DNA of 35,719 nucleotides from Candidatus Micrarchaeota archaeon (GCA_040754495.1 JBFMCO010000040.1:1-35719), one strand, 5' to 3'; positions 3,464 through 14,562 are shown, counted from the stretch's first letter. The notes: generated by a model from the sequence alone, not told the origin. Program-made: numbers and translations.

Positions 3464-4564
3464 TCAGGAATTCAGCGACTTCCAGTCGGGTTCCTGGTGG
3501 CCGCAGGCCTCCGGCCGCCCCCCTGTCTGCGTTATCTGGATAGCACCTCCCAAGTCGCGGTTAAGAAAGGTACCGAGCACGCCTGCGGGATTCGTGCGAA
3601 GGCCCTGCTCCAGCAACTCTTCATCGACCGTAATGCCTGCCGCCCTGACCGCATCCAGGTCTATCCGGATGGACAAATGCCCACCGCCGCGGATTCCGTA
3701 GCGGTCAAGATGGCTATCTAGGTTAGCAAGCCGCTGGATATCAGACCCTCCCGCTAGAATCTTATCAAGATTGTTGTTTACCGCACCCGTGAATGAGTCA
3801 GCATTTACACGATACTCGAAAACAAGCGCCCGCGCGTGATGCCCGCTCTCCTCCTCGGTCTCCTGCGGCGCCTGCTGCTGTTCCTGTGCCGGAGGTGTCG
3901 CCTGTCCTCCTGGTGGCGTCGGTGGCGTTGCTGCCCCTCCGCCTCCTGCGCCTGTTTCCTGCGCCGTGAGTATCTCCGTTGCGGTAGTCCGCGTCCACGC
4001 GCCGGCGTCGGTAATCTCGCGCCTTCCAGCCTGGCGCGCAACCGTCCTTGCCGCGGTGTCTAGGGCATCGCCGGAAAGGCCCATCGCAGCCAGGTCCTGC
4101 CTCACGAGCGTATATGCCGCGTCCTCAGCGGCCTTGCCTATCACCCTCCCTATGGAGTCCCTTAGTTCCTGGGCGCCGAAGTAGCCTCCTTCCTCGCCAG
4201 CCGCCCGCGCAGCTCTCCGCGTCTGGTCGCTCTGCGCGGCCCTGTCCGCGGCCCTCCATGCCCTGCTCCTGATGGCCTCTGCCTGCTCAGTTGTCAGCGT
4301 GATTCCTGCGGCCGCTGCGGTATCTATTATTAGCTGCCTGTCCTCGGCTTTCCTCTGCTCGCCCCTTGCCGCCCCTGCCTGGGCCCTCGCCTCAGCCCCG
4401 TTTGCAAGGACACCCCTGGCTGCAGTCGCGGCTGCGGCGAGGGATGCCGCAAGAGGGGCGCCCGCCTCGGTCGGCGGCCTGAATGCATTCGGCTGGTTGG
4501 CGAGGACCGCCTGCGCGTCCCTTTTCGCCGTGTCAACCCTTTCCTGAAGCTGTCCTCCGCCCAT
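3464..4564 (-). CDS. Hypothetical Ala/Arg-rich, Lys-poor orphan (366 aa): helical N-region, Pro/Gln/Glu linker, C-terminal alpha/beta-like region
   Basis: Long ORF filling the gap between tdh and the 95-aa gene. No family motif recognised. 5 Lys by my count. Confidence 0.7.
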   Translation of the reverse strand: MGGGQLQERVDTAKRDAQAVLANQPNAFRPPTEAGAPLAASLAAAATAARGVLANGAEARAQAGAARGEQRKAEDRQLIIDTAAAAGITLTTEQAEAIRSRAWRAADRAAQSDQTRRAARAAGEEGGYFGAQELRDSIGRVIGKAAEDAAYTLVRQDLAAMGLSGDALDTAARTVARQAGRREITDAGAWTRTTATEILTAQETGAGGGGAATPPTPPGGQATPPAQEQQQAPQETEEESGHHARALVFEYRVNADSFTGAVNNNLDKILAGGSDIQRLANLDSHLDRYGIRGGGHLSIRIDLDAVRAAGITVDEELLEQGLRTNPAGVLGTFLNRDLGGAIQITQTGGRPEACGHQEPDWKSLNS

Positions 4565-4573
4565 GGAAATCCC

Positions 4574-4861
4574 CTAGATGCGTCCCTCGAACTCCCTGCA
4601 CAAATCCGCGAACTTCTCGAGCCTGCATGCTGACGCTTCCAGGTCTTCTCCCGCGCCGCACCCCATGACAGATGCGCGCTCCCATTCGGAGAATGCCTTG
4701 TGGAACTTCCGCAGGGCCTCGATTGTTTCAGCCAGCTCAGCAGGCCTGTCCTTAGACAAATCCCACTGCGCGATGGCGACTTCTACTGAAGAAAGAGCCT
4801 TGTTGACCTTCCGCTGCAGTTCCCTTTCGTATTCCCGGATGCGTATCTCTGCGTGCCCCAT
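4574..4861 (-). CDS. Hypothetical helical protein (95 aa)
   Basis: Charged amphipathic helical pattern; tightly spaced with its minus-strand neighbours. Confidence 0.6.
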   Translation of the reverse strand: MGHAEIRIREYERELQRKVNKALSSVEVAIAQWDLSKDRPAELAETIEALRKFHKAFSEWERASVMGCGAGEDLEASACRLEKFADLCREFEGRI

Positions 4862-4886
4862 GTGAAAGGTATTTCATGCTATGTTT

Positions 4887-5792
4887 TTAATCAGCATTCG
4901 TGCCGGGCCTTTCCACGCTTACAGTGCCGTGCTCATCAAGGCGTATGCGGATAACGCCGTTTTGATATCGTATTGCCAGCCCGTCTTCGCGGGAGACAGC
5001 GAAAGGCCCTTCCATATCACCGGATTGCTTATACGCAACCGTCGTCCAGGACCTGTTTTCCGGGGCTACGCCGCGGAAAGCCAGAACCGGCACCTCCCCG
5101 CTCTGGATAACGAGAAGCGCTCCCCCGAAGTACGCAAGGACCGCGTCGTCGCGTATGTCATCTCTCGGCATGCTTTTTCTCCACCTGCCCTCTGAATCGC
5201 TCAAATCAGTCACGTAGATTCTGTCCGTGGTACGCAGGAACAGGCGCCTGGTTTCCGGGTCGAACGCATGGGCGCTCGTTCGTGCAGGAAGGGCCAGGTT
5301 TGTGCTGCCGAGTATGGACGGATGAGCCCGGTCTACCGTCAGGACGTACCTGTCAGTAATGACAGCCGACAATTCCCCGCTCATCAGAACCTCAGCGCTC
5401 ATGCCTCTCTCCCCGCTGGAAAGCGTGTCGAACCTGACCATGGTCCTGCCGCCGTCAGGGAGCTTGTGGATTACCTCCATGGAGCACCCGCTCTCGTATA
5501 AGTCCGCGCTTTCGCTCTGCAATGTACGGGTAAAAGAGTTGTCCTGGCAGCCGAACTTCACATCAACGTTGCCCAGGATGCGGATATCCTCTGAAAGAGG
5601 GACAGATTTAGGATTCGGTTCAGGTGCCGGTGCAATGAGGCGGTGCTCCGGCCTGTGCAAGTCCGAACGCGAAGGTTCGGGCTGTCCGGTGCAGGATAGC
5701 AGGAGAAGCGCGGGGGCGATGGCCGAAAGCGGCGCTCCTGCTCTCCCCCGGAGCATCCCGCCAGCCGCTACATCCCCCCGCTTCAGGCGCAT
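4887..5792 (-). CDS. Putative lipoprotein/exported beta-rich hypothetical protein (301 aa)
   Basis: Arg-rich N-region, hydrophobic APALLLLS and lipobox-like Cys34; short beta-strand pattern downstream; TATA-like TATATAAAT about 25 nt upstream on the minus strand. Confidence 0.65.
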   Translation of the reverse strand: MRLKRGDVAAGGMLRGRAGAPLSAIAPALLLLSCTGQPEPSRSDLHRPEHRLIAPAPEPNPKSVPLSEDIRILGNVDVKFGCQDNSFTRTLQSESADLYESGCSMEVIHKLPDGGRTMVRFDTLSSGERGMSAEVLMSGELSAVITDRYVLTVDRAHPSILGSTNLALPARTSAHAFDPETRRLFLRTTDRIYVTDLSDSEGRWRKSMPRDDIRDDAVLAYFGGALLVIQSGEVPVLAFRGVAPENRSWTTVAYKQSGDMEGPFAVSREDGLAIRYQNGVIRIRLDEHGTVSVERPGTNAD

Positions 5793-5933
5793 GATTCGTT
5801 TTTATTCCATACCATTTATATATACTACTTAACCACTTTTTGCAACCTAATCGCATGTTTCGCCCAATTCGCGGCTGCGGTCGGCAACGGTTAAAAATCT
5901 AAGTTGGGAAGGTTTCCCTGACAAGGTGACCCT
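5793..5933. promoter_or_regulatory. Divergent promoter region; GGGAA-N3-TTCCC dyad; RBS of the AbrB-like gene
   Basis: AT-rich; ATTTATATATA near 5814-5824; TTAAAAA 5891-5897; dyad 5906-5918; AAGGTGA 5923-5929 before ATG 5934. Confidence 0.55.
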
Positions 5934-6089
5934 ATGGACGCTTCAGTTAAGAAAATGGGCAAGTCGCTTGCTATCGAGCTGCCTGAGGAAGAAGTCAAAC
6001 GCCTCGGTTTGAAGGCTGGCATGAAGGTCGAGGTGGAGATAAAGAAGAAATCCTCGAGCGCGGCGCCTGACGACGGATGGGGAGATTAG
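5934..6089 (+). CDS. AbrB/MazE/SpoVT-family DNA-binding protein (51 aa)
   Basis: Below the ORF-track cutoff. Manual translation MDASVKKMGKSLAIELPEEEVKRLGLKAGMKVEVEIKKKSSSAAPDDGWGD fits the swapped-hairpin pattern K-x-G-x-S-x-x-I-x-LP...LGL-x-x-G-x-x-V; good RBS. Confidence 0.85.
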   Translation: MDASVKKMGKSLAIELPEEEVKRLGLKAGMKVEVEIKKKSSSAAPDDGWGD

Positions 6090-8897
6090 GTGCAGCCGGT
6101 TTCCGGTTCCCAGCCCCCGGTCTCGGGTTCCGGGTTTTGCGTTCCTGTTCAGCGGCAGCCTCTCTTAAGCCGGGGCTTCCGTGTCCTGCTCCTGCTGCTT
6201 CCTCTCCTATCCCTCTCGCTCGCACAGCAGCTGAACGCGTCCGACCTCCCATCGCCGTTCGTTTCGGACGATTTCATCAAGTCGGCCCAGAACATCCCGG
6301 AAAACGACTACAACCGGCTGAGCGACATCCACCAGATGGTCATGATACTATATGAGCATGACAGCACCCTCTCCGCGCTCGCTCCAGAAACAAAGAGCAG
6401 GCTAATAAAAAACGTCCGCTCCTTCCAGAACCCGAACGGCGGCTTCGGAGACTGGGAGAACGACCGCTCCAAGACCGAATCGACACGCCTCGCCCTCGAG
6501 ACGCTCAAAGCGCTGGGGTCAGGCCCAATGAACAGGAGCGGTGCGGTCCATTTCCTCTCAGACCTGCAGGTAACGAACCTCACCTACGGCAACTATGGCT
6601 TCCGTTCCCACCTGCAGGACCCTGATGCCGACCTGTCTTCGACTTATGATGCCATCGTCAGCTTCGAGCTCCTCGGAGAGCCGGTCCCGAATTCCGTCCA
6701 GGCCGTGGAATACGTCAAGCAGCACCAGAACAAGGACGGCGGGTTCGGCCTCGGTACCAACCGGAAGGCAGGCGTATCATGGCCTTCCGAGATGTCGCTG
6801 ACCTACCGCGGGCTGAGGGCCCTTGATTCGCTGGGCTCGAAGCCGGATTTCGAGGACGAAGCGGTGTCTTACATAAAAGGCCTCCAGACAGCCGATGGCG
6901 GATTCTCGGCGTCAAAAAGCATATCGGCGCGTGCCACTACGGCGGCGACATACAACGCCATAATGGCGCTTGAAGTCCTCGGGGAAGCGCCTGACCGGCC
7001 TGCCGATGCCCGCAGTTTCCTGGAGAACAATGCCGGGGAGGGCGGCGGCTTCCTGGAGAACAGCCTTGACACGGAAGAATCCCTCCATTCGACATACTGG
7101 GCAATCGCGGCCCTCAAGACGCTCGGCGCCGGAATATCCGGATTCGATTCAGACAGCTACGCGCTCGGGTACGATTCATCGCGCAACGACGGCGGATTCG
7201 GCGAGTTCCCGGGCGGGGGCTCCAGCATAAGATACACGTTCGATGCCATATATGCGCTGAACCTCATAGGGGCCGAGCCAATGAACAAGAGCGCGGCAAT
7301 CTCATTCCTCCGCCAGCTGAGGAACAGCGATGGCGGATATGCCGAAGACGGCGGCGTAAGCAACGTGGAATCCACATACCGCGCCGTGTTCGCCCTGCGC
7401 CTTCTTGGCGAGGAGCCGGAAGACAAGAACCGCACCATTGCGTTCCTGAGGGAAAGCCAGGATAAGAGCGGCGGATTCGGATGGTCCAGCGTATCAATCC
7501 CACGCGGCGCCTACACGTACCGCGCGGTGAAAGCGCTGGAGCTTCTCGGCTCTGCCCCCGAGAACGGGGCTAAGGCCGCCGACTACATCCGCTCGCTCCA
7601 GAACCCCGACGGAGGCTTCGGCAACTATCCCGGCGATGTCTCGGACGTGACCTCCACCTACCGCGCCGTTGCGACGCTGGAGAGCCTCGGCGGCGCGCCG
7701 GATGAGCCGGAAAAGGCCGCGGCGTTCATCCTCGCATCGCAGAACCCCGACGGAGGCTTCAGGAGAAGCCCGTACGACACCAAGGCGCCGGACAACTTCT
7801 CCAAAGCCGTATATACGTACGGGGCCGTGAACGCGCTAATCATCCTCGGCCGCGCTCCCCAGCCCCGCGTCTTCAACTTCACGGAGTCGCTCAGGAACCC
7901 GGACCTCGGCTACAGCGAGCAGCCGTTCTACACCTCCACTGTGCCTGATACTTTCACCTCCCTCCAGACGTACATGAGCATCTTCCCAGGCATCGTCAAC
8001 CATGTGCCGGCCCTGAGCGGAATTGTGTCCCCCTCCGCGGGCAATTCATCCACGGTCTTCCAATTCTTCGCTAATTACAGCGATTCCGAAGGGCAGAAGC
8101 CCGAGGCGGTGTATGTCCTGATTGACGGGGAGCAGCGCCTCATGGAGCCGGCTGCGGGCAGCGGGTCGAACGCCTCGGCCAGCATGCGGTACTCTTTCCG
8201 CTCGGCGCTGCCATCAGGCATGCACAATGTCTCCTTCCTGGCCGGGGACACCATCCTCTTCACGAAAACAGGCAACATCCCGGTTGACGTGTCGCCGCTT
8301 GCCTCGGCGCCCGAGCTCGACCTGTCAATCTATCCCGGGAACGGCACGCCGTCCACGGCGTTCGTCTTCACCGCGCTTTACAGGGACGCCGACGGCGAGC
8401 CTCCGGCCTATGTCGAGATAAAGCTCGATGAGTCGGAATGGGCTGCCATGTCCCCGGCGGATTCTTCGGCGGATTACCTCTCAGGCAAGCCCTACAAGTA
8501 CAATGCAAGCCTCCAGCCGGGTATCCACACGTTCAGGGCCCGCACTTCGGACGGGACCAACCTCAGGCTCTCGACCACCCAGCGCGTCACGGTCTTCGAG
8601 GAAAGCCCGGTATCGCCGGATGACGTGGTTTTCCTGAAAATGCAGGCGCTTATTGCCGCAAAGCGCGGCATCAACATATCAAAGGACGACGTCTCGGCAG
8701 ACGTTTTCGAAGGGAAATTCGCATGGAGGGTGTCGCTTCCGGCAGGAGCGCTTTACGTGTCGAAGGACGGCACGGCCCTGCTTGAGCCCGAGCAGGTTTT
8801 CGACATGCGGCCGGTCCTTATCGTCGCAGGCCTGGCAATCCTCGTGGCGTTGGCATATCTCTGGCACAGGGGGAGAACGCGTGGAAAGGGAAGATAA
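6090..8897 (+). CDS. Membrane-anchored surface protein: prenyltransferase/squalene-cyclase (QW-like) alpha/alpha-toroid repeats, two Ig-like repeats, possible PepSY-like segment, C-terminal TM
   Basis: Signal-like RVLLLLLPLLSLSLA; 11 repeats of Q/R-N-x-D-G-G-F/Y...T-Y-x-A-x-x-x-L-x-x-L-G; two Y-x-D-x-x-G...M...Y...L-x-x-G-x-H beta domains; TM VLIVAGLAILVALAYLW plus basic tail; many N-x-S/T sequons. GTG 6090 is the only in-frame start before the signal peptide. Confidence 0.85.
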   Translation: MQPVSGSQPPVSGSGFCVPVQRQPLLSRGFRVLLLLLPLLSLSLAQQLNASDLPSPFVSDDFIKSAQNIPENDYNRLSDIHQMVMILYEHDSTLSALAPETKSRLIKNVRSFQNPNGGFGDWENDRSKTESTRLALETLKALGSGPMNRSGAVHFLSDLQVTNLTYGNYGFRSHLQDPDADLSSTYDAIVSFELLGEPVPNSVQAVEYVKQHQNKDGGFGLGTNRKAGVSWPSEMSLTYRGLRALDSLGSKPDFEDEAVSYIKGLQTADGGFSASKSISARATTAATYNAIMALEVLGEAPDRPADARSFLENNAGEGGGFLENSLDTEESLHSTYWAIAALKTLGAGISGFDSDSYALGYDSSRNDGGFGEFPGGGSSIRYTFDAIYALNLIGAEPMNKSAAISFLRQLRNSDGGYAEDGGVSNVESTYRAVFALRLLGEEPEDKNRTIAFLRESQDKSGGFGWSSVSIPRGAYTYRAVKALELLGSAPENGAKAADYIRSLQNPDGGFGNYPGDVSDVTSTYRAVATLESLGGAPDEPEKAAAFILASQNPDGGFRRSPYDTKAPDNFSKAVYTYGAVNALIILGRAPQPRVFNFTESLRNPDLGYSEQPFYTSTVPDTFTSLQTYMSIFPGIVNHVPALSGIVSPSAGNSSTVFQFFANYSDSEGQKPEAVYVLIDGEQRLMEPAAGSGSNASASMRYSFRSALPSGMHNVSFLAGDTILFTKTGNIPVDVSPLASAPELDLSIYPGNGTPSTAFVFTALYRDADGEPPAYVEIKLDESEWAAMSPADSSADYLSGKPYKYNASLQPGIHTFRARTSDGTNLRLSTTQRVTVFEESPVSPDDVVFLKMQALIAAKRGINISKDDVSADVFEGKFAWRVSLPAGALYVSKDGTALLEPEQVFDMRPVLIVAGLAILVALAYLWHRGRTRGKGR
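6096..6144 (+). repeat. Degenerate 7-nt tandem array
   Basis: CCGGTTT|CCGGTTC|CCAGCCC|CCGGTCT|CGGGTTC|CGGGTTT|TGCGTTC. Confidence 0.8.
6420..7990 (+). repeat. Eleven protein-level prenyltransferase/squalene-cyclase-type repeats
   Basis: QNPNGGFG, YGF, QNKDGGFG, QTADGGFS, GGGFL, NDGGFG, RNSDGGYA, QDKSGGFG, QNPDGGFG, QNPDGGFR, RNPDLGYS; exact 21-nt DNA duplicate cagaaccccgacggaggcttc at 7599-7619 and 7740-7760. Confidence 0.85.
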
Positions 8898-10506
8898 GAT
8901 ACTGGTCGCTCTTTTCCTCGTTTCCTTCCTGGCGCTTGCACTGCTGATAAGGCTGAGCATGCCGAATTTCATGCCAGTAATAGTCGAATCGAGGCTCTTC
9001 TTCCAGCTCCTGCTGGCCGCCAGCGTCATCGCGCTCCTGCGCAACTGCGTCGGCATATCCACGTACGGCGTGTTCGGCCCTGCGATAATCGCTTTCGGCC
9101 TGCTCTCACCGGGGCCGCTCTGGGGCGTGGCGCTCTATGTGAACGTCCTCGTCCTCGCCCTTGCCGTCCGCTTCATAATCGAGCCGCTGCGCATCCCGAA
9201 TGCCTACCGCGTGGCCCTTCTCATCTCGGTATTCGGCATATTCGTTTCGCTGGCTGAAGTGGTGGGGGAGCTCTACCACATGAGCATCCTCCAGGCGTCG
9301 CTGCTTTTCCCGGCCCTCATCACCTCCTGGATGGCAGACCGTTTCGCCAATAACGTCCGGGAGATAGGGTGGCGGGAGCCGGCCATCAAGCTGCTCGCCA
9401 CATTCCTGCTCGTCCTCGTCTCCTGGGCGGTCATCAGCAACATCCCGCTCGTCATCTGGTTCATAGAGAACCCGGAGATGTGGGCCATACTCATCGGATT
9501 CAACATCCTGCTCGCGACCAAATGGCGCTTCAGGCTCCTCGAGTATCTCAGGTTCGACTGGGTCCTCAGGAAGCAGCCGCCCTCCGACGTGCTCTCGATG
9601 AACGTCCGCAACCGCGAATACATAGAGGAGTACAACCCGCGCCATCTCTTCCCGGGGCTTGAGAAGGCCGAGATGAAGAAGGCGATGCACGGCCTCGGCA
9701 TATCCACGCCGGAGACGTACCTGATACTTTCAGAGAAGAGGCAGCTCGGGCGGCTCAGGGAACTGCTCACCGGCAGGGACAAGTTCGTAATCAAGCCCAA
9801 CGTGTCCTACGGCGGCGAGGGCATTATCGTGGTGACCGGAAAGAAAGGCGGGCGCTACGCCTCCGCTTCAGGCAAGACGTACGGCATCCAGGAGCTGACC
9901 GGGCATGCGGCCCAGATAATGGACGGCCAGTATTCCTCCGAGCTGTGGGACAGCGCCATAGTGGAGGCGCTCGTTGTCGCCCATCCGTTCTTCTCCGGGA
10001 TATCCTCTGGCGGCGTCCCGGACATCCGCGTCATCGTGTTCAAGGGATTCCCGCTCATGGCCATGACTCGCCTGCCGACGCGGGAATCCGGCGGGGAGGC
10101 GAACCTCCACAAGGGGGCGGTCGGTGTCGGGCTGGAGCTCCACACGGGAAAGGCCGTGACGGCATTCTCGAACAAGCTCGGGCACATAAAAAAGCATCCT
10201 GATACGGGCGCTCCGCTGGAAGGCGTCGTGATGCCCGGCTGGCGCGGGATACTCGAGCTCGCGGTCAAGGCCCATTACGCGTCCCGGCTGGGATACTCGG
10301 GCGTGGACATCGTTGTCGACAAGGACAAGGGGCCGATGGTGCTGGAAGTGAACAAGCGGCCGGGCCTCGGCATACAGAACGCCAACCTCGAAGGCCTTCT
10401 CAGGCGGCTCCGTTTCGTGGAGGGCAAGCTGGCCGAGGTCGAGCATCTTCCCCTGGAGAAAAAAGTGGACCTGGTGATGGAATGGTCGGAAAAGGGCTGG
10501 AGATAA
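8881..10506 (+). CDS. Fusion of a 7TM_transglut-like membrane domain and an alpha-L-glutamate ligase-related (RimK-like) ATP-grasp domain (541 aa)
   Basis: Start reassigned to GTG 8881 (RBS GGGGGAG, overlapping the upstream stop). 7TM motifs LLRNCVGISTYGVFGPAIIAF and LFPALITSWMADR. ATP-grasp motifs MNVRNREYI..YNPR, FVIKPNVSYGGEGI, GVPDIRVIVF..P.MAM.RLPT..SGGEANLHKGAVGVG, GYSGVDIVVD...GPMVLEVNKRPGLGIQNAN. Confidence 0.9.
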   Translation: MEREDKILVALFLVSFLALALLIRLSMPNFMPVIVESRLFFQLLLAASVIALLRNCVGISTYGVFGPAIIAFGLLSPGPLWGVALYVNVLVLALAVRFIIEPLRIPNAYRVALLISVFGIFVSLAEVVGELYHMSILQASLLFPALITSWMADRFANNVREIGWREPAIKLLATFLLVLVSWAVISNIPLVIWFIENPEMWAILIGFNILLATKWRFRLLEYLRFDWVLRKQPPSDVLSMNVRNREYIEEYNPRHLFPGLEKAEMKKAMHGLGISTPETYLILSEKRQLGRLRELLTGRDKFVIKPNVSYGGEGIIVVTGKKGGRYASASGKTYGIQELTGHAAQIMDGQYSSELWDSAIVEALVVAHPFFSGISSGGVPDIRVIVFKGFPLMAMTRLPTRESGGEANLHKGAVGVGLELHTGKAVTAFSNKLGHIKKHPDTGAPLEGVVMPGWRGILELAVKAHYASRLGYSGVDIVVDKDKGPMVLEVNKRPGLGIQNANLEGLLRRLRFVEGKLAEVEHLPLEKKVDLVMEWSEKGWR

Positions 10507-11564
10507 GGGATTTCAGGCTGTTCCTCGCGATATGCGCGATAGCGGCAGTGTTCGCTGTCGCCTTCTTCCTCCTTTTCGAGACCCCGCCGCATGAGAAATG
10601 GGCAACCACCCATTACAACGTCTCGTATTACGTGGTCGTGGAGAACCACGGCATCGCGCCTGCGACCAACATCCCGCTTACCGTCGCTCTCCTGGACTCC
10701 GAGGAGCCGTACCAGACGCTTATCGGCAGGAGCGTCTACCCTGAGCCGGACCGCGTCTATCGCGATTCCATGGACAACTCCTTCGCCGCTTATGAAATCG
10801 GCTCGATACAGCCGGGCGAGAACTTCACAGTCCGCGTCGATGCCGTGTTCGATTCCGAGAATGCGGACTACAACATCCTGCGCAGCAGCATCGGCAGCCT
10901 CGGCGACGAGGAGAGCAAGTTCACCCTCCCCTCGAAGTACGTGGAATCCAACGACCCTGCCATTAAGGCCAAGGCCGCGTCGCTCGCAGAGAACAGCACG
11001 TACGTCGTCGACACCCTGTGGAGCACGTACTCTTTCATCGTCGATGAAATAGACTATGAGAAGCAGCCTGGGGAATTCGGGGCTGCCTGGGTCCTCGGGA
11101 AGCGCGAGGGGGGAAGCGCGGAGCTAGGCAACCTTTTCGTCGCCCTGGCACGGGCCAATGGAATCCCTGCAAGGCGGCTTTCCGGGTGGGGCGCCCACTT
11201 CGCCACCAACGAGACCCTCGATTCCGTCCAGTTCGCGCACGGCTGGGCCGAGTTCTACCTTCGCGGATATGGCTGGGTCCCTGTGGACCCCACCTTCGGC
11301 AAGACGAACAAATTCGATAATTTCGGCCGGAGCGACGACGACCACATCGTCCTCACCCGCGGCGAGGGCATACATTTCTACACCCGCGGGCCATTCACTT
11401 CCCCGATAGGGGATGCCGAGCTCGACACCACCTATACGGTCCATATCAACTCTAAGGACGTGGAGAACGTCTCTCCGAAGCGGGACCTGCTTGCGGCCCT
11501 TTCATTCGCTGTCCCGGCCCTTTTCCTCGCGTTCCTCGCCTGGAAGTTCTGGAAAGGCGGCTAA
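10482..11564 (+). CDS. Transglutaminase-like protein with N- and C-terminal TM anchors; catalytic Cys position is Ser
   Basis: GGSAELGNLFVALARANGIPARRLSG, HGWAEFYLRGYGWVPVDPT; hydrophobic segments at both ends; GGTGA RBS; 25-nt overlap with the upstream gene. Confidence 0.9.
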   Translation: MVGKGLEIRDFRLFLAICAIAAVFAVAFFLLFETPPHEKWATTHYNVSYYVVVENHGIAPATNIPLTVALLDSEEPYQTLIGRSVYPEPDRVYRDSMDNSFAAYEIGSIQPGENFTVRVDAVFDSENADYNILRSSIGSLGDEESKFTLPSKYVESNDPAIKAKAASLAENSTYVVDTLWSTYSFIVDEIDYEKQPGEFGAAWVLGKREGGSAELGNLFVALARANGIPARRLSGWGAHFATNETLDSVQFAHGWAEFYLRGYGWVPVDPTFGKTNKFDNFGRSDDDHIVLTRGEGIHFYTRGPFTSPIGDAELDTTYTVHINSKDVENVSPKRDLLAALSFAVPALFLAFLAWKFWKGG

Positions 11565-11580: not shown

Positions 11581-12042
11581 CTAGCCTGACAGCGCCTGCG
11601 TGATGAGCTTCTCGGCCGCGACCCTGTTTATCCTGTACAGCTCGTCGAGGAACCTGACCGCCTCCGACTCGTTGCCCATCGCCATGGCGAAGGCGAACCG
11701 GAGCTTCTCAAGCTCCACATTCCCCTTTTCATCTATGCCGGCAAGGAGGTCGTGCCCTTCGCGGTATCTCCCGAGCCTGAAAAGGGCTGATGCCGCAAGT
11801 ATCCCGCATGATGACTTGTCCTTTTTCCCGGCCATCCGGAACGCCTTCTCCCCCTCTGAAGCGGCCTCCTCGAAGTTTCCGGACCAGAACGCGCTTTTCG
11901 CAAGCAGGTAATGCCCTATCATATGGGCCGGGAATGCGGATGCAAGGGCTCTGGACAGGTCGTACGCCTTCTTGTACTCCCCCTGCCGGAGGTAGACGGC
12001 TATCTGCTTCACGAAGGAGTCCCTCTTCTCGAATATCGCCAC
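11581..12042 (-). CDS. TPR-like repeat protein (about 153 aa)
   Basis: YLRQGEYKKAYDL, HYLLAKSAFWSGNFEEA, LFRLGRYREG and AMGNESEA fit TPR patterns. Start placed at GTG 12042 because the ORF-track start lies in the AT-rich divergent promoter. Confidence 0.75.
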   Translation of the reverse strand: MAIFEKRDSFVKQIAVYLRQGEYKKAYDLSRALASAFPAHMIGHYLLAKSAFWSGNFEEAASEGEKAFRMAGKKDKSSCGILAASALFRLGRYREGHDLLAGIDEKGNVELEKLRFAFAMAMGNESEAVRFLDELYRINRVAAEKLITQALSG

Positions 12043-12091
12043 GTAACGCTTTGGGGGAGCGTTTTTAAAAAGAATGGTAGCTATAATATAC

Positions 12092-12733
12092 ATGAAATCC
12101 TATCAAAGGACACTATTAATCGGCGCCGTCGCCGTCGGCCTCGCGGCCGGGACCGGCGCCCTCTTCAAGTCCTCCTCCCTCCCCCGCGTAGAACCCATCG
12201 CCGCGGAAGTCATGCCGCGTGCGTCCGAAGCCGCTTCGAAGGAGATACTCTCCTGCAAAAGCGTGAAGGAGCTCGGAGAGCGCCTGCCGGCCATATCCCG
12301 GCATCTCAAGGCGATGAGGGAATCCGGGGACGCGCAAGGGCTGAGGAAAACCTACGAGGCGACCAAGGAGCACGTGCTCGCGCTCATGGAAAGGACCAGG
12401 GTGCAGGAGGACTCAGCCTACATAGACGACATCCATCGCCTCGGCGGCCTTTTCATCGCCACCGACTCCCGGGACGAGCGCCTCGCCCTCATATTCCTCG
12501 CGCTCCCGCGCCTGCACGAGCGCGTAATCTTCATCGAGCCGCTTGAGCCGGACGGCAACACCATCGAAAGGGCCATGCTCCATGCCGAAGACTCCTTCTT
12601 CAACTCGCTTGGCGACGGGGGCTTCGGCGAAGCGTCAATTCTCATCAGGAGGCATTGGTACACCCCGGACCAGCTCCCTCCCGACGAACAGGACAAGCGG
12701 CTCTTCTTCGAGGGATTCGCACGCCTCCGCTAG
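12092..12733 (+). CDS. Hypothetical protein with N-terminal TM/signal anchor (213 aa)
   Basis: MKSYQRTLLIGAVAVGLAAGTGALF followed by a helical region; TATA-like TTTTTAAAA and TATAATATA upstream. Confidence 0.65.
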   Translation: MKSYQRTLLIGAVAVGLAAGTGALFKSSSLPRVEPIAAEVMPRASEAASKEILSCKSVKELGERLPAISRHLKAMRESGDAQGLRKTYEATKEHVLALMERTRVQEDSAYIDDIHRLGGLFIATDSRDERLALIFLALPRLHERVIFIEPLEPDGNTIERAMLHAEDSFFNSLGDGGFGEASILIRRHWYTPDQLPPDEQDKRLFFEGFARLR

Positions 12734-14562
12734 GCGCCAAGGACGCCTCTCCTGCGGGCAGCATCGCGCATCGGCCCTTGAGCCAGGAGCACGTCTGAAA
12801 GATGGACCGAGTCCTCGGAACGCGGGTTAATCATGCGATACACCGCCTGGCCCATTATGGCCTGGGCGCCAGTCAGGCTTGCAATGCTCATGCCTATCCC
12901 CTGGAGGGAAAACCTGGATTCCGGGTTGAGGATGAGCGTCGCCGCCATGAGGAACGAGCGCTCCATCTCGTACCTGTTAGGGGCTGAGGCAAGGAAGCCG
13001 TCTATGTCCAGATTGCCGACCCCCATGACGATTGTCTTTCTCGCATTCGAAGCAAGCCCATCCCTCAGCCTCTGCCTGTCTATGCCGAGGGAGTTGTAGA
13101 GCCCTGACAGGGCCGAGTCGGACGAGGCCGTCCCGGAGCCTGCCACCCTGCTCGCCATAAGGATTCCTGAGGCGTAGTTGGCAAGGACGAGCGGCGGCTG
13201 CCGCGCGAACAGCTCGCGGTGCGTTTCGTAGAAGCGCGTGAGGAAATCCCTGGCCCTGCCTGCCATCGCCGGAGTTATGCTGCCTGTGGAATGGGTGAGG
13301 GCATACGGAAGGTAAGCCCACGCACGCGAGGATTCTATCAGCCTCTCTCCCTGCGGAGTCGCGCCCATGAAGTCTATGAGGTCCATTGTCGTATTCAGGA
13401 AAGAGCCCATCGGAAGGGCCGCGGTGGCAGCCCCGCCCGCCTGGATGGAGCGCCCGAGCGCATCAAGGGCCACGGTTCCGTACCTCCTGGCCATTCCCTC
13501 GTCGCCGGCATTGTGGAATGCCACCGCCGCAGTTGCGGAAAGCCTGTACCTGAGGGCCGGGCTCTGGATGCGGCTGAAGTCGAAATTCCGGAAAAGAGCC
13601 CTCTGCTGGTCCTCGGAGATGTGCGTGACGTAGTAAGAGAGGAAAAGCGGCGGGAAGCCGGCAACCTCCGCTGCGCTGGGCGACGGGTTGTCGAATAGCC
13701 TGTCCTGCCTCCGCGCTGTCTCGACGATGGAGGGGTTCAGCGCCATGGGGGCGCCGAGCCTGTATGCGGTAGTGGAGAACATGGTCCTTGAGCGCAGGGT
13801 TACGCCGTCCGGGCCGAGTTCGAATGCGCTCCCCTGGGACGAATCCCTTGCGTTCGTGGAGTCGAAGAACATTGCGCGCCCGGCGACATCCACCCTGAGG
13901 ATTGCATGCCCCGTGTCGTCCCACGTCCCGCCGCCCGTCGTGTAGGAGCCCACGGGCTGGACCCTCGCCGTCACCGTGACGCCGCCCCTGCCTGCCATGT
14001 AATAAACGAGCTGTCCGAGCACTATGCTTCCGGAGAAGCAGTTTATTCCCCTGGCGCTGAGAGCCTCTGACGGGTCAGAGGCGCTGATGTCGTATCCCAG
14101 CCCGAACAGGTTCGCCGGAGGCTCGCCCCTCACCCTGAACCTCTCGCCGACCTGCGCTGTTATCTCCGCGAATCTCTGCGCCCTGGCAGGGCTTCCGAGC
14201 CTCGCGCATTCATCCAGGGCTGCCCCGAGGGCGACGTCCCTTCCGCCCACGGTCACGCGGACGTTCTCCATATTGAGGCCGGTGAAATACCTGCCGCCTT
14301 CCATCTGGTTGTAAAGTGTAGTCGCCCTTGCCGGGTCCCTCTGCTGGTAATAATCGAGGAGCGCGCTCTCGACACGCTGGCGGACTTCGGGCGGCTGGGC
14401 GGTCCTCATGGCCCTTAGGGCGCTGTCCACTATCGCCCTCGTTTCCCTCGCGCCGAGGTCGAGGCCGTAGCGGCTGCTTATGCTTCCAAGCTCGCTCTCG
14501 GCGAGCGTCCTTGTCCTTTCCCTCGCTTCCGGTCCAAGCAATGCCTGCGGTCCGCCTGTCAT
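12730..14562 (-). CDS. Orphan with transglutaminase/papain-like Cys-His-Asp triad, nearly Lys-free (610 aa)
   Basis: GINC175FSGSIVLGQL, GH219AILRVDVAG, FFD234ST; ATG lies 1 nt after the lpdA stop; one Lys by my count. Confidence 0.7.
   Translation of the reverse strand: MTGGPQALLGPEARERTRTLAESELGSISSRYGLDLGARETRAIVDSALRAMRTAQPPEVRQRVESALLDYYQQRDPARATTLYNQMEGGRYFTGLNMENVRVTVGGRDVALGAALDECARLGSPARAQRFAEITAQVGERFRVRGEPPANLFGLGYDISASDPSEALSARGINCFSGSIVLGQLVYYMAGRGGVTVTARVQPVGSYTTGGGTWDDTGHAILRVDVAGRAMFFDSTNARDSSQGSAFELGPDGVTLRSRTMFSTTAYRLGAPMALNPSIVETARRQDRLFDNPSPSAAEVAGFPPLFLSYYVTHISEDQQRALFRNFDFSRIQSPALRYRLSATAAVAFHNAGDEGMARRYGTVALDALGRSIQAGGAATAALPMGSFLNTTMDLIDFMGATPQGERLIESSRAWAYLPYALTHSTGSITPAMAGRARDFLTRFYETHRELFARQPPLVLANYASGILMASRVAGSGTASSDSALSGLYNSLGIDRQRLRDGLASNARKTIVMGVGNLDIDGFLASAPNRYEMERSFLMAATLILNPESRFSLQGIGMSIASLTGAQAIMGQAVYRMINPRSEDSVHLSDVLLAQGPMRDAARRRGVLGA

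Follow-up and report, generated by a model that had tools for sequence, protein, structure and literature searches.

An archaeal toroid, membrane-ligase and serine-type transglutaminase-fold cassette as a candidate relative of the bacterial Rlo envelope system

Systems in which an ATP-grasp ligase, a seven-transmembrane (7TM) protein and a transglutaminase-like (TGL) domain together tag peptides were reportedly predicted by Iyer, Abhiman, Burroughs and Aravind in 2009, in work said to be the source of the Pfam families PF14397, PF14400 and PF14402. The pairing of an ATP-grasp ligase with a TGL peptidase was restated in PMC3495828. Here we describe an archaeal cassette built from these families in a 35,719-nucleotide stretch of DNA (the window; GCA_040754495.1 JBFMCO010000040.1:1-35719) from a Candidatus Micrarchaeota metagenome-assembled genome (MAG). 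Its three large genes, at 6090-11564, encode a toroid-type surface protein, a fusion of a membrane domain to an ATP-grasp ligase, and a separate transglutaminase (TG)-fold protein with serine at the position of the catalytic cysteine. We read this core as the archaeal counterpart, in three genes, of the bacterial Rlo (RloB/RloC, TIGR02291-type) envelope system, an interpretation that we hold to be about evenly balanced between right and wrong.

In Pseudomonas aeruginosa, Rlo matters for osmotic tolerance, antibiotic susceptibility and biofilm formation. Loss of three RloA proteases leads to hypo-osmotic lethality and envelope defects, deletion of rloB or rloC rescues the protease-less mutants, and RloA cleaves polyglutamate in vitro; the role of Rlo in hypo-osmotic tolerance and the envelope is known only from the genetics of this species (PMC12239564). 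Since loss of rloB or rloC rescues mutants without RloA, the product of the bacterial ligase/membrane pair must be trimmed outside the cytoplasm. The original prediction for our locus, made from the sequence alone, had taken the bacterial system to be wholly uncharacterized; with rloABC genetics and polyglutamate cleavage by RloA now known, this no longer holds.

The homology that it proposed to the proteobacterial ATP-grasp/inactive-TG-7TM/peptidase system was confirmed in the bacterial loci that we fetched, where adjacent genes encode RloA (PF05618), RloB of about 510 aa (PF14400 plus PF14402) and the ligase RloC of about 320 aa (PF14397). The bacterial control L076 matched PF14400 at 7.6e-59. 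Bacterial fusions suggested by a scan of genome contigs with a single protein were discarded, as the open reading frames (ORFs) show adjacent rloB and rloC, except for one triple fusion in Opitutales.

Layout and conservation of the cassette

Four same-strand ORFs of 51, 935, 541 and 360 aa span 5934-11564, with abutting or overlapping ends, and the coordinates and starts given in the original prediction were confirmed. A Shine-Dalgarno-like motif of the GGTGA/GGGGA type lies 9-11 nt 5′ of each of the four starts. A longer form of the fusion gene from a TTG start at 8653 is unsupported: homologues and the database cluster representative are 537-548 aa long. Profile hidden Markov model checks with PF14397, PF14402, PF01841 and PF00432 confirmed the domain assignments of the cassette proteins. 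The features discussed below are as follows.

5934-6089, plus strand: ORF 1, 51 aa, with its TAG stop at 6087-6089
6090-8897, plus strand: toroid gene, 935 aa, GTG start directly after the TAG of ORF 1
8881-10506, plus strand: fusion gene, 541 aa, GTG start, 17-nt overlap with the toroid stop
8881-9576, plus strand: RloB-type membrane domain of the fusion (PF14402, 5.8e-16)
9577-10506, plus strand: RimK/RloC-like ATP-grasp ligase domain of the fusion (PF14397, 1e-66, 225 bits against a cut-off of 31.4)
10482-11564, plus strand: TG gene, 360 aa, ATG start, 25-nt overlap with the fusion stop
11115-11117, plus strand: AGC codon of Ser212, at the position of the TG-fold catalytic Cys (from alignments, codon table and model)
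11238-11240, plus strand: codon of His253, partner of Ser212
11286-11288, plus strand: codon of Asp269, partner of Ser212

Conservation was assessed in 96 fetched loci (designated by L numbers), whose ORFs were compared with the window proteins by BLASTP, and in seven further loci for which Pfam-annotated gene tables were read. Counting the window, 14 independent loci have the toroid, fusion and TG genes in this order on the same strand, mostly with overlaps; the three large genes do co-occur in other genomes, as the original prediction required. The other loci are listed by host.

Thermoplasmatota: L010, L012, L020 and L022
Nanoarchaeia/Woesearchaeota: L015 and L023
"Uncultured archaeon" MAG: L017
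Metagenome contigs: L110 and L111, including the closest relative, at 64-73% identity
Asgard and allied MAGs: L029, L031, L032 and L037

Because this order recurs in 14 loci of several archaeal phyla, the arrangement is not due to chance. Full-length toroid orthologues adjoin the fusion gene in 14 loci. Three of the four Asgard and allied loci have a further toroid, which shares a single ORF of 1370-1402 aa with the membrane domain and precedes it, and Pfam confirmed PF00432, PF14402 and PF14397 in a single ORF of this Asgard type. A search for longer forms yielded four more clusters of single-chain toroid-7TM-ATP-grasp proteins (1339-1493 aa). The large surface protein, which the original prediction counted as part of the system, was upheld as a conserved partner that is fused to the ligase in Asgard archaea, but only as an accessory, given that pairs of fusion and TG genes exist without it. 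Across these forms, the fusion is the core, the TG protein its commonest partner and the toroid a frequent accessory.

Other outside domains are joined to the same membrane-ligase module. A 951-aa ORF in a Bathyarchaeota MAG (L030:5004-7859) consists of the membrane domain, the ATP-grasp domain, a transmembrane helix (608-634) and a Peptidase_S8 subtilase, and here a serine protease stands in for the TG partner. An active-type TG core is attached to the module in Binatia and in the Opitutales triple fusion (L068:7936-12293), an 846-aa TG-core/7TM/ATP-grasp protein followed by a 606-aa TPR protein. Clusters in the Atlas have retropepsin or PKD domains attached, the retropepsin in Actinomycetota.

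In haloarchaea, an ORF of 60-78 aa with two transmembrane helices lies directly downstream of the fusion gene, with a stop/start overlap (L011:9820-10002, L016:9896-10132, L025 from 10803 and L026 from 2429). The second helix of this mini-protein carries an IP.LF-type motif resembling the C-terminal transmembrane helix of the TG protein. By sequence, the mini-protein looks like a TG protein minus its ectodomain, and there are hints that the transmembrane helices of both dock on the membrane domain of the ligase.

The 935-aa toroid protein comprises a signal peptide, alpha/alpha hairpin repeats, two immunoglobulin-like domains and a C-terminal transmembrane anchor. It matches PF00432 in five stretches (E 1.8e-63, 215 bits), and its PDB sequence matches are terpene cyclases and prenyltransferase beta subunits. 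About 10 prenyltransferase-type hairpin repeats are present, nine of them of the GGF type matched by pattern at a spacing of ~48 aa or multiples of it, and the repeats probably form two barrels. The protein contains no DxDD motif of class II cyclases, no CxEQ thioester motif of the kind seen in alpha-2-macroglobulin-type toroids and no Zn-ligand signature of prenyltransferase beta subunits, and its sole Cys sits in the signal peptide. Among 12 toroid orthologues, the invariant columns are mostly Gly, Leu and Thr with a few polar residues, and none is Cys or His. Because DxDD and CxEQ are missing and the only Cys belongs to the signal peptide, the toroid looks like a noncatalytic surface scaffold.

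The membrane-bound ligase and the serine of the transglutaminase-fold protein

PF14402 and PF14397 occur in one polypeptide, which agrees with the predicted direct fusion of the 7TM domain to the ATP-grasp domain. The AlphaFold2 (AF2) model of the 541-aa protein (predicted local distance difference test [pLDDT] score, 87) has helices up to about residue 214, followed by the ATP-grasp domain. Against TIGR02291 the ATP-grasp domain scores 290.4 bits (E 1.4e-86, 293 of 317 model positions), below the 314.2-bit cut-off; judged by these scores, the ligase is a close relative just under the equivalog threshold. Database names for the fusion are generic, for example [quoted passage not shown] Fold searches with the whole model were filled by ATP-grasp matches, and the closest structures to the ATP-grasp domain are ArgX (3vpb; Z 17.8), RimK (Z 16.3) and LysX. 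ArgX/LysX and RimK are ligases that act on peptide or protein carboxylates. Residues D381, R383, N408, H410, D476, E489 and N491 do not vary among 26 homologues and line up with the RimK motifs; the nucleotide- and Mg-binding motifs DiR, NlHkG, GVDI and EVN.RPG are likewise invariant. The ATP-grasp domain is predicted to be catalytically intact and cytoplasmic, as the original prediction had supposed.

A motif of the form R..G..T.G.F.P is common to the membrane domains of the fusion and of bacterial RloB. In the fusion it lies in a conserved, Gly/Pro-rich loop (R54..G58..T..G63.F65.P67). The domain also has an amphipathic helix in which W150, E161 and W164 are invariant and D153 and R154 near-invariant among the 26 homologues. 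Structural matches of the membrane domain in the Atlas were PF14402 proteins only.

Six transmembrane helices are placed at about residues 6-25, 38-57, 79-103, 107-132, 165-185 and 188-214, and a positively charged linker follows the last of them. Both ends of the fusion are inferred to be cytoplasmic, which would put the conserved loop (54-78) and the charged amphipathic helix (142-162) on the cytoplasmic side beside the ligase. The predicted transmembrane count fits the RloB order, in which one transmembrane helix and an outside TG domain precede the same membrane helices, and also the Asgard fusion, which has one extra transmembrane helix between the outside toroid and the shared membrane domain. 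N-glycosylation sequons number 14 in the toroid, 5 in the TG protein and 1 in the fusion. A ligase inside the cell, with toroid and TG protein outside, is consistent with these sequon counts, with the charge distribution and with the parity of transmembrane helices in the three architectures.

A soluble relative of the ligase, 368-383 aa long and without the membrane domain, is encoded in two Thermoplasmatales loci (L005:2687-5464 and L009:6215-8942) directly after an AMP-phosphorylase-like gene (Glycos_transf_3 plus a CDC48_N-like domain). Here the ATP-grasp family occurs in another setting, a cytoplasmic one.

The 360-aa TG protein consists of an N-terminal transmembrane helix, a beta-sandwich, a TG core and a C-terminal transmembrane helix, so that it is, as foreseen, a separate and doubly anchored protein of the Ser type; its ectodomain is predicted to be extracellular. 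It matches PF01841 at E 1e-17 (64.8 bits against a cut-off of 23). The top Foldseek matches of its AF2 model (pLDDT 89) are 3isr (1.6e-17) and TgpA (6g49), with TM-scores of 0.67-0.69 by target. PDB profile alignments to both place Ser212 on the catalytic Cys and also align the His and the Asp. In the model, helix 212-225 begins with Ser212, at the canonical position of the nucleophile in the TG/papain fold. In place of the canonical Cys-His-Asp triad, the protein thus has Ser212-His253-Asp269.

His253 and Asp269 are invariant in 16 of 16 TG orthologues, which suggests an active TG enzyme. At the nucleophile position, 11 of the 16 have Ser and 5 have Cys, the carriers of Cys (TGT) being the Asgard-clade loci L029, L031, L032, L035 and L037. 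The Ser codon is AGC or AGT in five loci and TCT or TCG in six. Even closely related loci disagree: AGC in the window contrasts with TCT in L110, and AGT in L023 with TCT in L015. A change between the AGY and TCN codon families needs two substitutions. The repeated switches with Ser kept therefore point to selection for Ser itself. In a profile search of 1.84 billion representatives, the triads in the best 150 were Cys-His-Asp in 128, Cys-His-Glu in 11, Ser-His-Asp in 9 and Ala-His-Asp in 2. Within this very large Cys-His-Asp family, the Ser form is concentrated at the top of the ranking, with 7 of the 11 best orthologues (among the best 20 matches). A Cys-type TG protein is encoded in the fusion-TG pair of L120. 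Taken together, these observations suggest that the TG protein is a catalytically active member of the fold in which Ser has replaced Cys as the nucleophile.

A further, lineage-typical TG-core protein, 400-470 aa long and ~30% identical to the cassette TG protein (G000:C32:53593-54072 and relatives), is encoded in most related Micrarchaeota genomes and on another contig of the host genome.

Proposed mechanism and competing explanations

The mechanism that we propose starts from the observed parts, their linkage and conservation, and the intact catalytic motifs. At the cytoplasmic face, the ligase would use ATP to add amino acids, most likely Glu or another acidic one, to a peptide or protein carboxylate, and its output would be an acidic tag or polymer; an acidic product is suggested by kinship with RimK and RloC and by the polyglutamate specificity of RloA. 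The membrane domain would present or pass this product to the outer face. There the toroid, standing where bacterial RloB has its dead TG domain, would bind the product as a noncatalytic scaffold, and the TG-fold enzyme (Ser212-His253-Asp269, or Cys-His-Asp in Asgard archaea) would trim or transfer the product, replacing the RloA protease. The other outside peptidases found on the same module, the subtilase of L030 and the retropepsin of Actinomycetota, count in favor of a trimming role, and the TG protein may be the missing peptidase rather than a cross-linker. As the original prediction had noted, there is no recognizable peptidase of the bacterial kind: PF05618 (RloA-type retropepsin) had no match in the cluster, in the whole 80%-complete host genome or in the archaeal loci with gene tables read; the bacterial loci tested have it upstream of RloB.

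Several observations weigh against this scheme. In the Atlas search the membrane domain matched no transporter-like fold, which is not evidence of a new fold; because no known transporter fold was matched, export through this domain is conjecture. The topology is a prediction from hydropathy, AF2 helices and charge distribution. Pairs of fusion and TG genes without an adjacent toroid occur in L014, L119 and L120, and the haloarchaea have only the fusion and the two-helix mini-protein; since such forms exist, the outside parts are dispensable for some function of the ligase. The Pfam name of PF14397, "sugar-transfer associated ATP-grasp," ties the family to sugar transfer. We know of no serine-nucleophile enzyme of the transglutaminase fold. 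The TG orthologue in the fusion-TG pair of L119 has Ala-His-Asp, and the TG domain is inactive in bacteria, where RloB has lost all three triad positions; given both, a purely binding role of the TG protein is possible.

These last points lead to the strongest competing explanation, which we consider less probable than the Rlo-like scheme although a serious contender: the Ser-type TG protein would be a pseudoenzyme, a peptide-binding subunit like the TG domain of RloB, and trimming would be left to unlinked proteases or would not occur at all. It draws on the RloB domain without a triad (PMC12239564), on the Ala-His-Asp orthologue and on the fact that Cys is the usual nucleophile, with Cys-His-Asp or Cys-His-Glu in 139 of the best 150 representatives. 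However, the His and Asp that have drifted in RloB are invariant in all 16 archaeal orthologues, Ser has been kept through AGY/TCN switches that include those between sister loci, the sister clade and L120 carry Cys, and no separate RloA-type protease was found that could take over the trimming. A different substrate is proposed by an improbable alternative, in which the cassette modifies a glycan- or isoprenoid-linked intermediate: the ATP-grasp domain would amidate it, the toroid would bind a polyprenyl carrier, and the TG protein would transfer or trim on the surface layer. Besides the sugar-transfer name of PF14397, the toroid would suit such a role by its isoprenoid-binding prenyltransferase/terpene-cyclase fold and by a weak match to the Ribophorin II N-terminal domain (E 2.4e-4, below cut-off), and in the membrane domain the conserved motifs seem to be turned toward the cytoplasmic leaflet. 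Yet none of the neighborhoods with gene tables read showed a flippase, a glycosyltransferase or a polyprenyl-phosphate enzyme, DxDD and Zn-ligand signatures are missing from the toroid, the nearest characterized ligases act on peptide carboxylates, and the bacterial partner RloA cleaves polyglutamate.

We regard it as very improbable that the genes are functionally unrelated neighbors, or part of a mobile toxin-antitoxin or defense island flagged by the MazE/AbrB-like ORF 1. That ORF does resemble MazE-type antitoxins, and the block is patchily distributed and absent from relatives, but the three large genes keep their order and coupling from phylum to phylum, with gene fusions among them, no PADLOC family matches any cassette protein, no toxin adjoins, and the MazE-like ORF is not conserved elsewhere.

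Going beyond the Rlo-like scheme, we put forward a doubtful extension of it. The 360-aa protein could be the first serine-nucleophile enzyme of the transglutaminase/papain-like fold, evolved from the Cys form kept in Asgard relatives. Outside the cell, it could act on an acidic polymer or peptide that the ligase produces, and jointly with the toroid glycoprotein it could build, anchor or remodel a polyglutamate-type surface coat. The block, acquired possibly from Thermoplasmatota-like hosts, could serve cell-cell attachment.

The archaeal rearrangements show which parts pair up and on which side of the membrane, and they point to a peptide-handling enzyme as the outside partner. The Cys-to-Ser change with its codon switches is a natural experiment on nucleophile exchange in the papain/transglutaminase fold, the cultured haloarchaea with a stripped-down form offer a genetic entry point, and the cassette is a candidate determinant of surface architecture in DPANN and Asgard archaea.

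Host, neighboring genes and known systems

The host is, as predicted, archaeal: a Micrarchaeota MAG of 1.63 Mb, 80% complete, from a DPANN-type, symbiotic-type archaeon. The contig of the window carries a PolX gene with 75% identity to that of a Candidatus Micrarchaeota MAG. Searches of 60 relatives and of 400 genomes from the phylum did not find the fusion, nor did a draw of 60 relatives yield a toroid orthologue; the relatives have only distant TG paralogues (~30% identity). Because neither the fusion nor the toroid was found in relatives, it is probable that this Micrarchaeota lineage gained the three genes together, as one block. The tree of the ligase domain divides the archaeal from the bacterial forms with a support of 96. 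The window groups with L110 and L111 in a clade (98) that holds all loci with Ser-type TG proteins, and the Asgard forms make up a separate clade (100). The haloarchaeal fusion-only forms are nested in the Ser-TG clade (98), which suggests secondary loss of their outside parts.

ORF 1, which had been taken as an AbrB regulator and part of the system, did not hold up in that role. Its match to PF04014 (18.7 bits, E 0.0017) is below the 24.7-bit cut-off, and the NCBIfam matches of MazE type are weak and all far under their cut-offs, so that a SpoVT/AbrB-MazE resemblance is plausible but weak. BLASTP of the fetched loci found no counterpart of it in other cassette loci, which argues that ORF 1 is not a component of the system; it would be a local add-on, at most an autoregulator of the local operon. 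The ORF ends in an acidic DDGWGD tail (6072-6089), and MazE antitoxins have similar acidic, Trp-containing tails. A scan of 26 other archaeal loci for small ORFs with an acidic-W-G-acidic tail found none. On both grounds, a role of ORF 1 as a LysW-like carrier was rejected: the MazE-tail reading appears simpler, and the carrier idea is ranked low. The LysW carrier protein, used by LysX and ArgX, itself ends in an EDWGE tail (PMC10433800). No toxin partner adjoins the MazE-like ORF in the window. On the metagenome contig L014, a MazE-like and PIN toxin-antitoxin pair (11999-12641) lies 1.3 kb downstream of the fusion-TG pair.

The sequence around the cassette contains the following features.

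3464-5792, minus strand: two ORFs of 366 and 301 aa, neither with a Pfam match
5793-5933, plus strand: intergenic region of 141 nt between divergent genes, AT-rich as read from the sequence
11581-12093, minus strand: small TPR gene directly after the cluster, convergent
12730-14562, minus strand: 610-aa ORF with a single sequon

The intergenic region includes a TATA-like AT-rich stretch at about 5800-5835 and is likely the putative promoter region of the cluster. The 301-aa gene immediately upstream (4887-5792) was not found in 39 same-genus genomes; the variable region therefore reaches past the cassette, this gene too being unique in the genus. The convergent TPR gene 3′ of the cluster ends 16 nt past the TG gene; the Opitutales triple fusion likewise has a TPR gene next to it. 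For the 610-aa ORF, we found no Pfam match, no PADLOC match and no transmembrane segment. It was considered as a relative of the cassette and rejected, as it does not resemble the large gene that follows the cassette in L110; on its sequence, it is treated as unrelated.

Among described systems, RloABC of P. aeruginosa (mBio 2025; NF052267 for RloB) shares with the cassette a homologous ligase, the PF14402 domain and a TG-fold ectodomain, in the same layout of cytoplasmic ligase, membrane module and extracytoplasmic peptide-handling domain. In the bacterial system, a TG domain without its triad precedes the membrane domain in one protein, the ligase is a protein of its own, and a secreted retropepsin, RloA, is encoded alongside. 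In the archaeal cassette, by contrast, the ligase lies behind the membrane domain, the TG protein is separate, with two transmembrane helices and Ser-His-Asp, RloA is missing and a toroid is added. The cassette gave no match to PF14400, its TG protein being a separate PF01841 protein.

RimK/RimB resembles the cassette in its closely similar ligase structure, its catalytic motifs and the pairing of a ligase with a trimming peptidase, but is soluble and cytoplasmic, acts on ribosomal protein S6 and has neither a membrane domain nor surface partners. LysX/ArgX with LysW provide the best structure match (ArgX, 3vpb) and have as their substrate a small protein, at its C-terminal acidic residue. The tail of the 51-aa ORF recalls that of LysW, but this ORF has no Zn ribbon and ends in Asp rather than Glu, and no lysine or arginine pathway genes are linked to the cassette. 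The putative cysteine protease 3isr of Cytophaga hutchinsonii and TgpA of P. aeruginosa have a beta-sandwich and a TG core like the cassette TG protein, which differs from them in having Ser instead of Cys and a transmembrane helix at both ends and in being encoded with a membrane ligase.

The peptide-tagging systems predicted in 2009 draw on the same Pfam families and follow the same logic, in which an ATP-grasp peptide ligase attaches a tag and a TG-like partner domain binds it or takes it off; the genomes that revealed the Ser-type TG protein, the toroid as partner and the triple fusion of Asgard archaea are later than that prediction. In the literature we found no paper describing the archaeal architecture, although the 2009 paper may mention 7TM-ligase fusions. 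The Asgard cassettes (L029, L031, L032 and L037) are the same three-part system with a ligase of a separate sister clade; the window differs from them in its unfused toroid, its single toroid gene, its Ser-type TG protein and its DPANN host. Distinctive and new here are the unfused form with a Ser-type TG protein, the Ser codon evidence, the block acquisition in a DPANN archaeon and the reduced form in haloarchaea.

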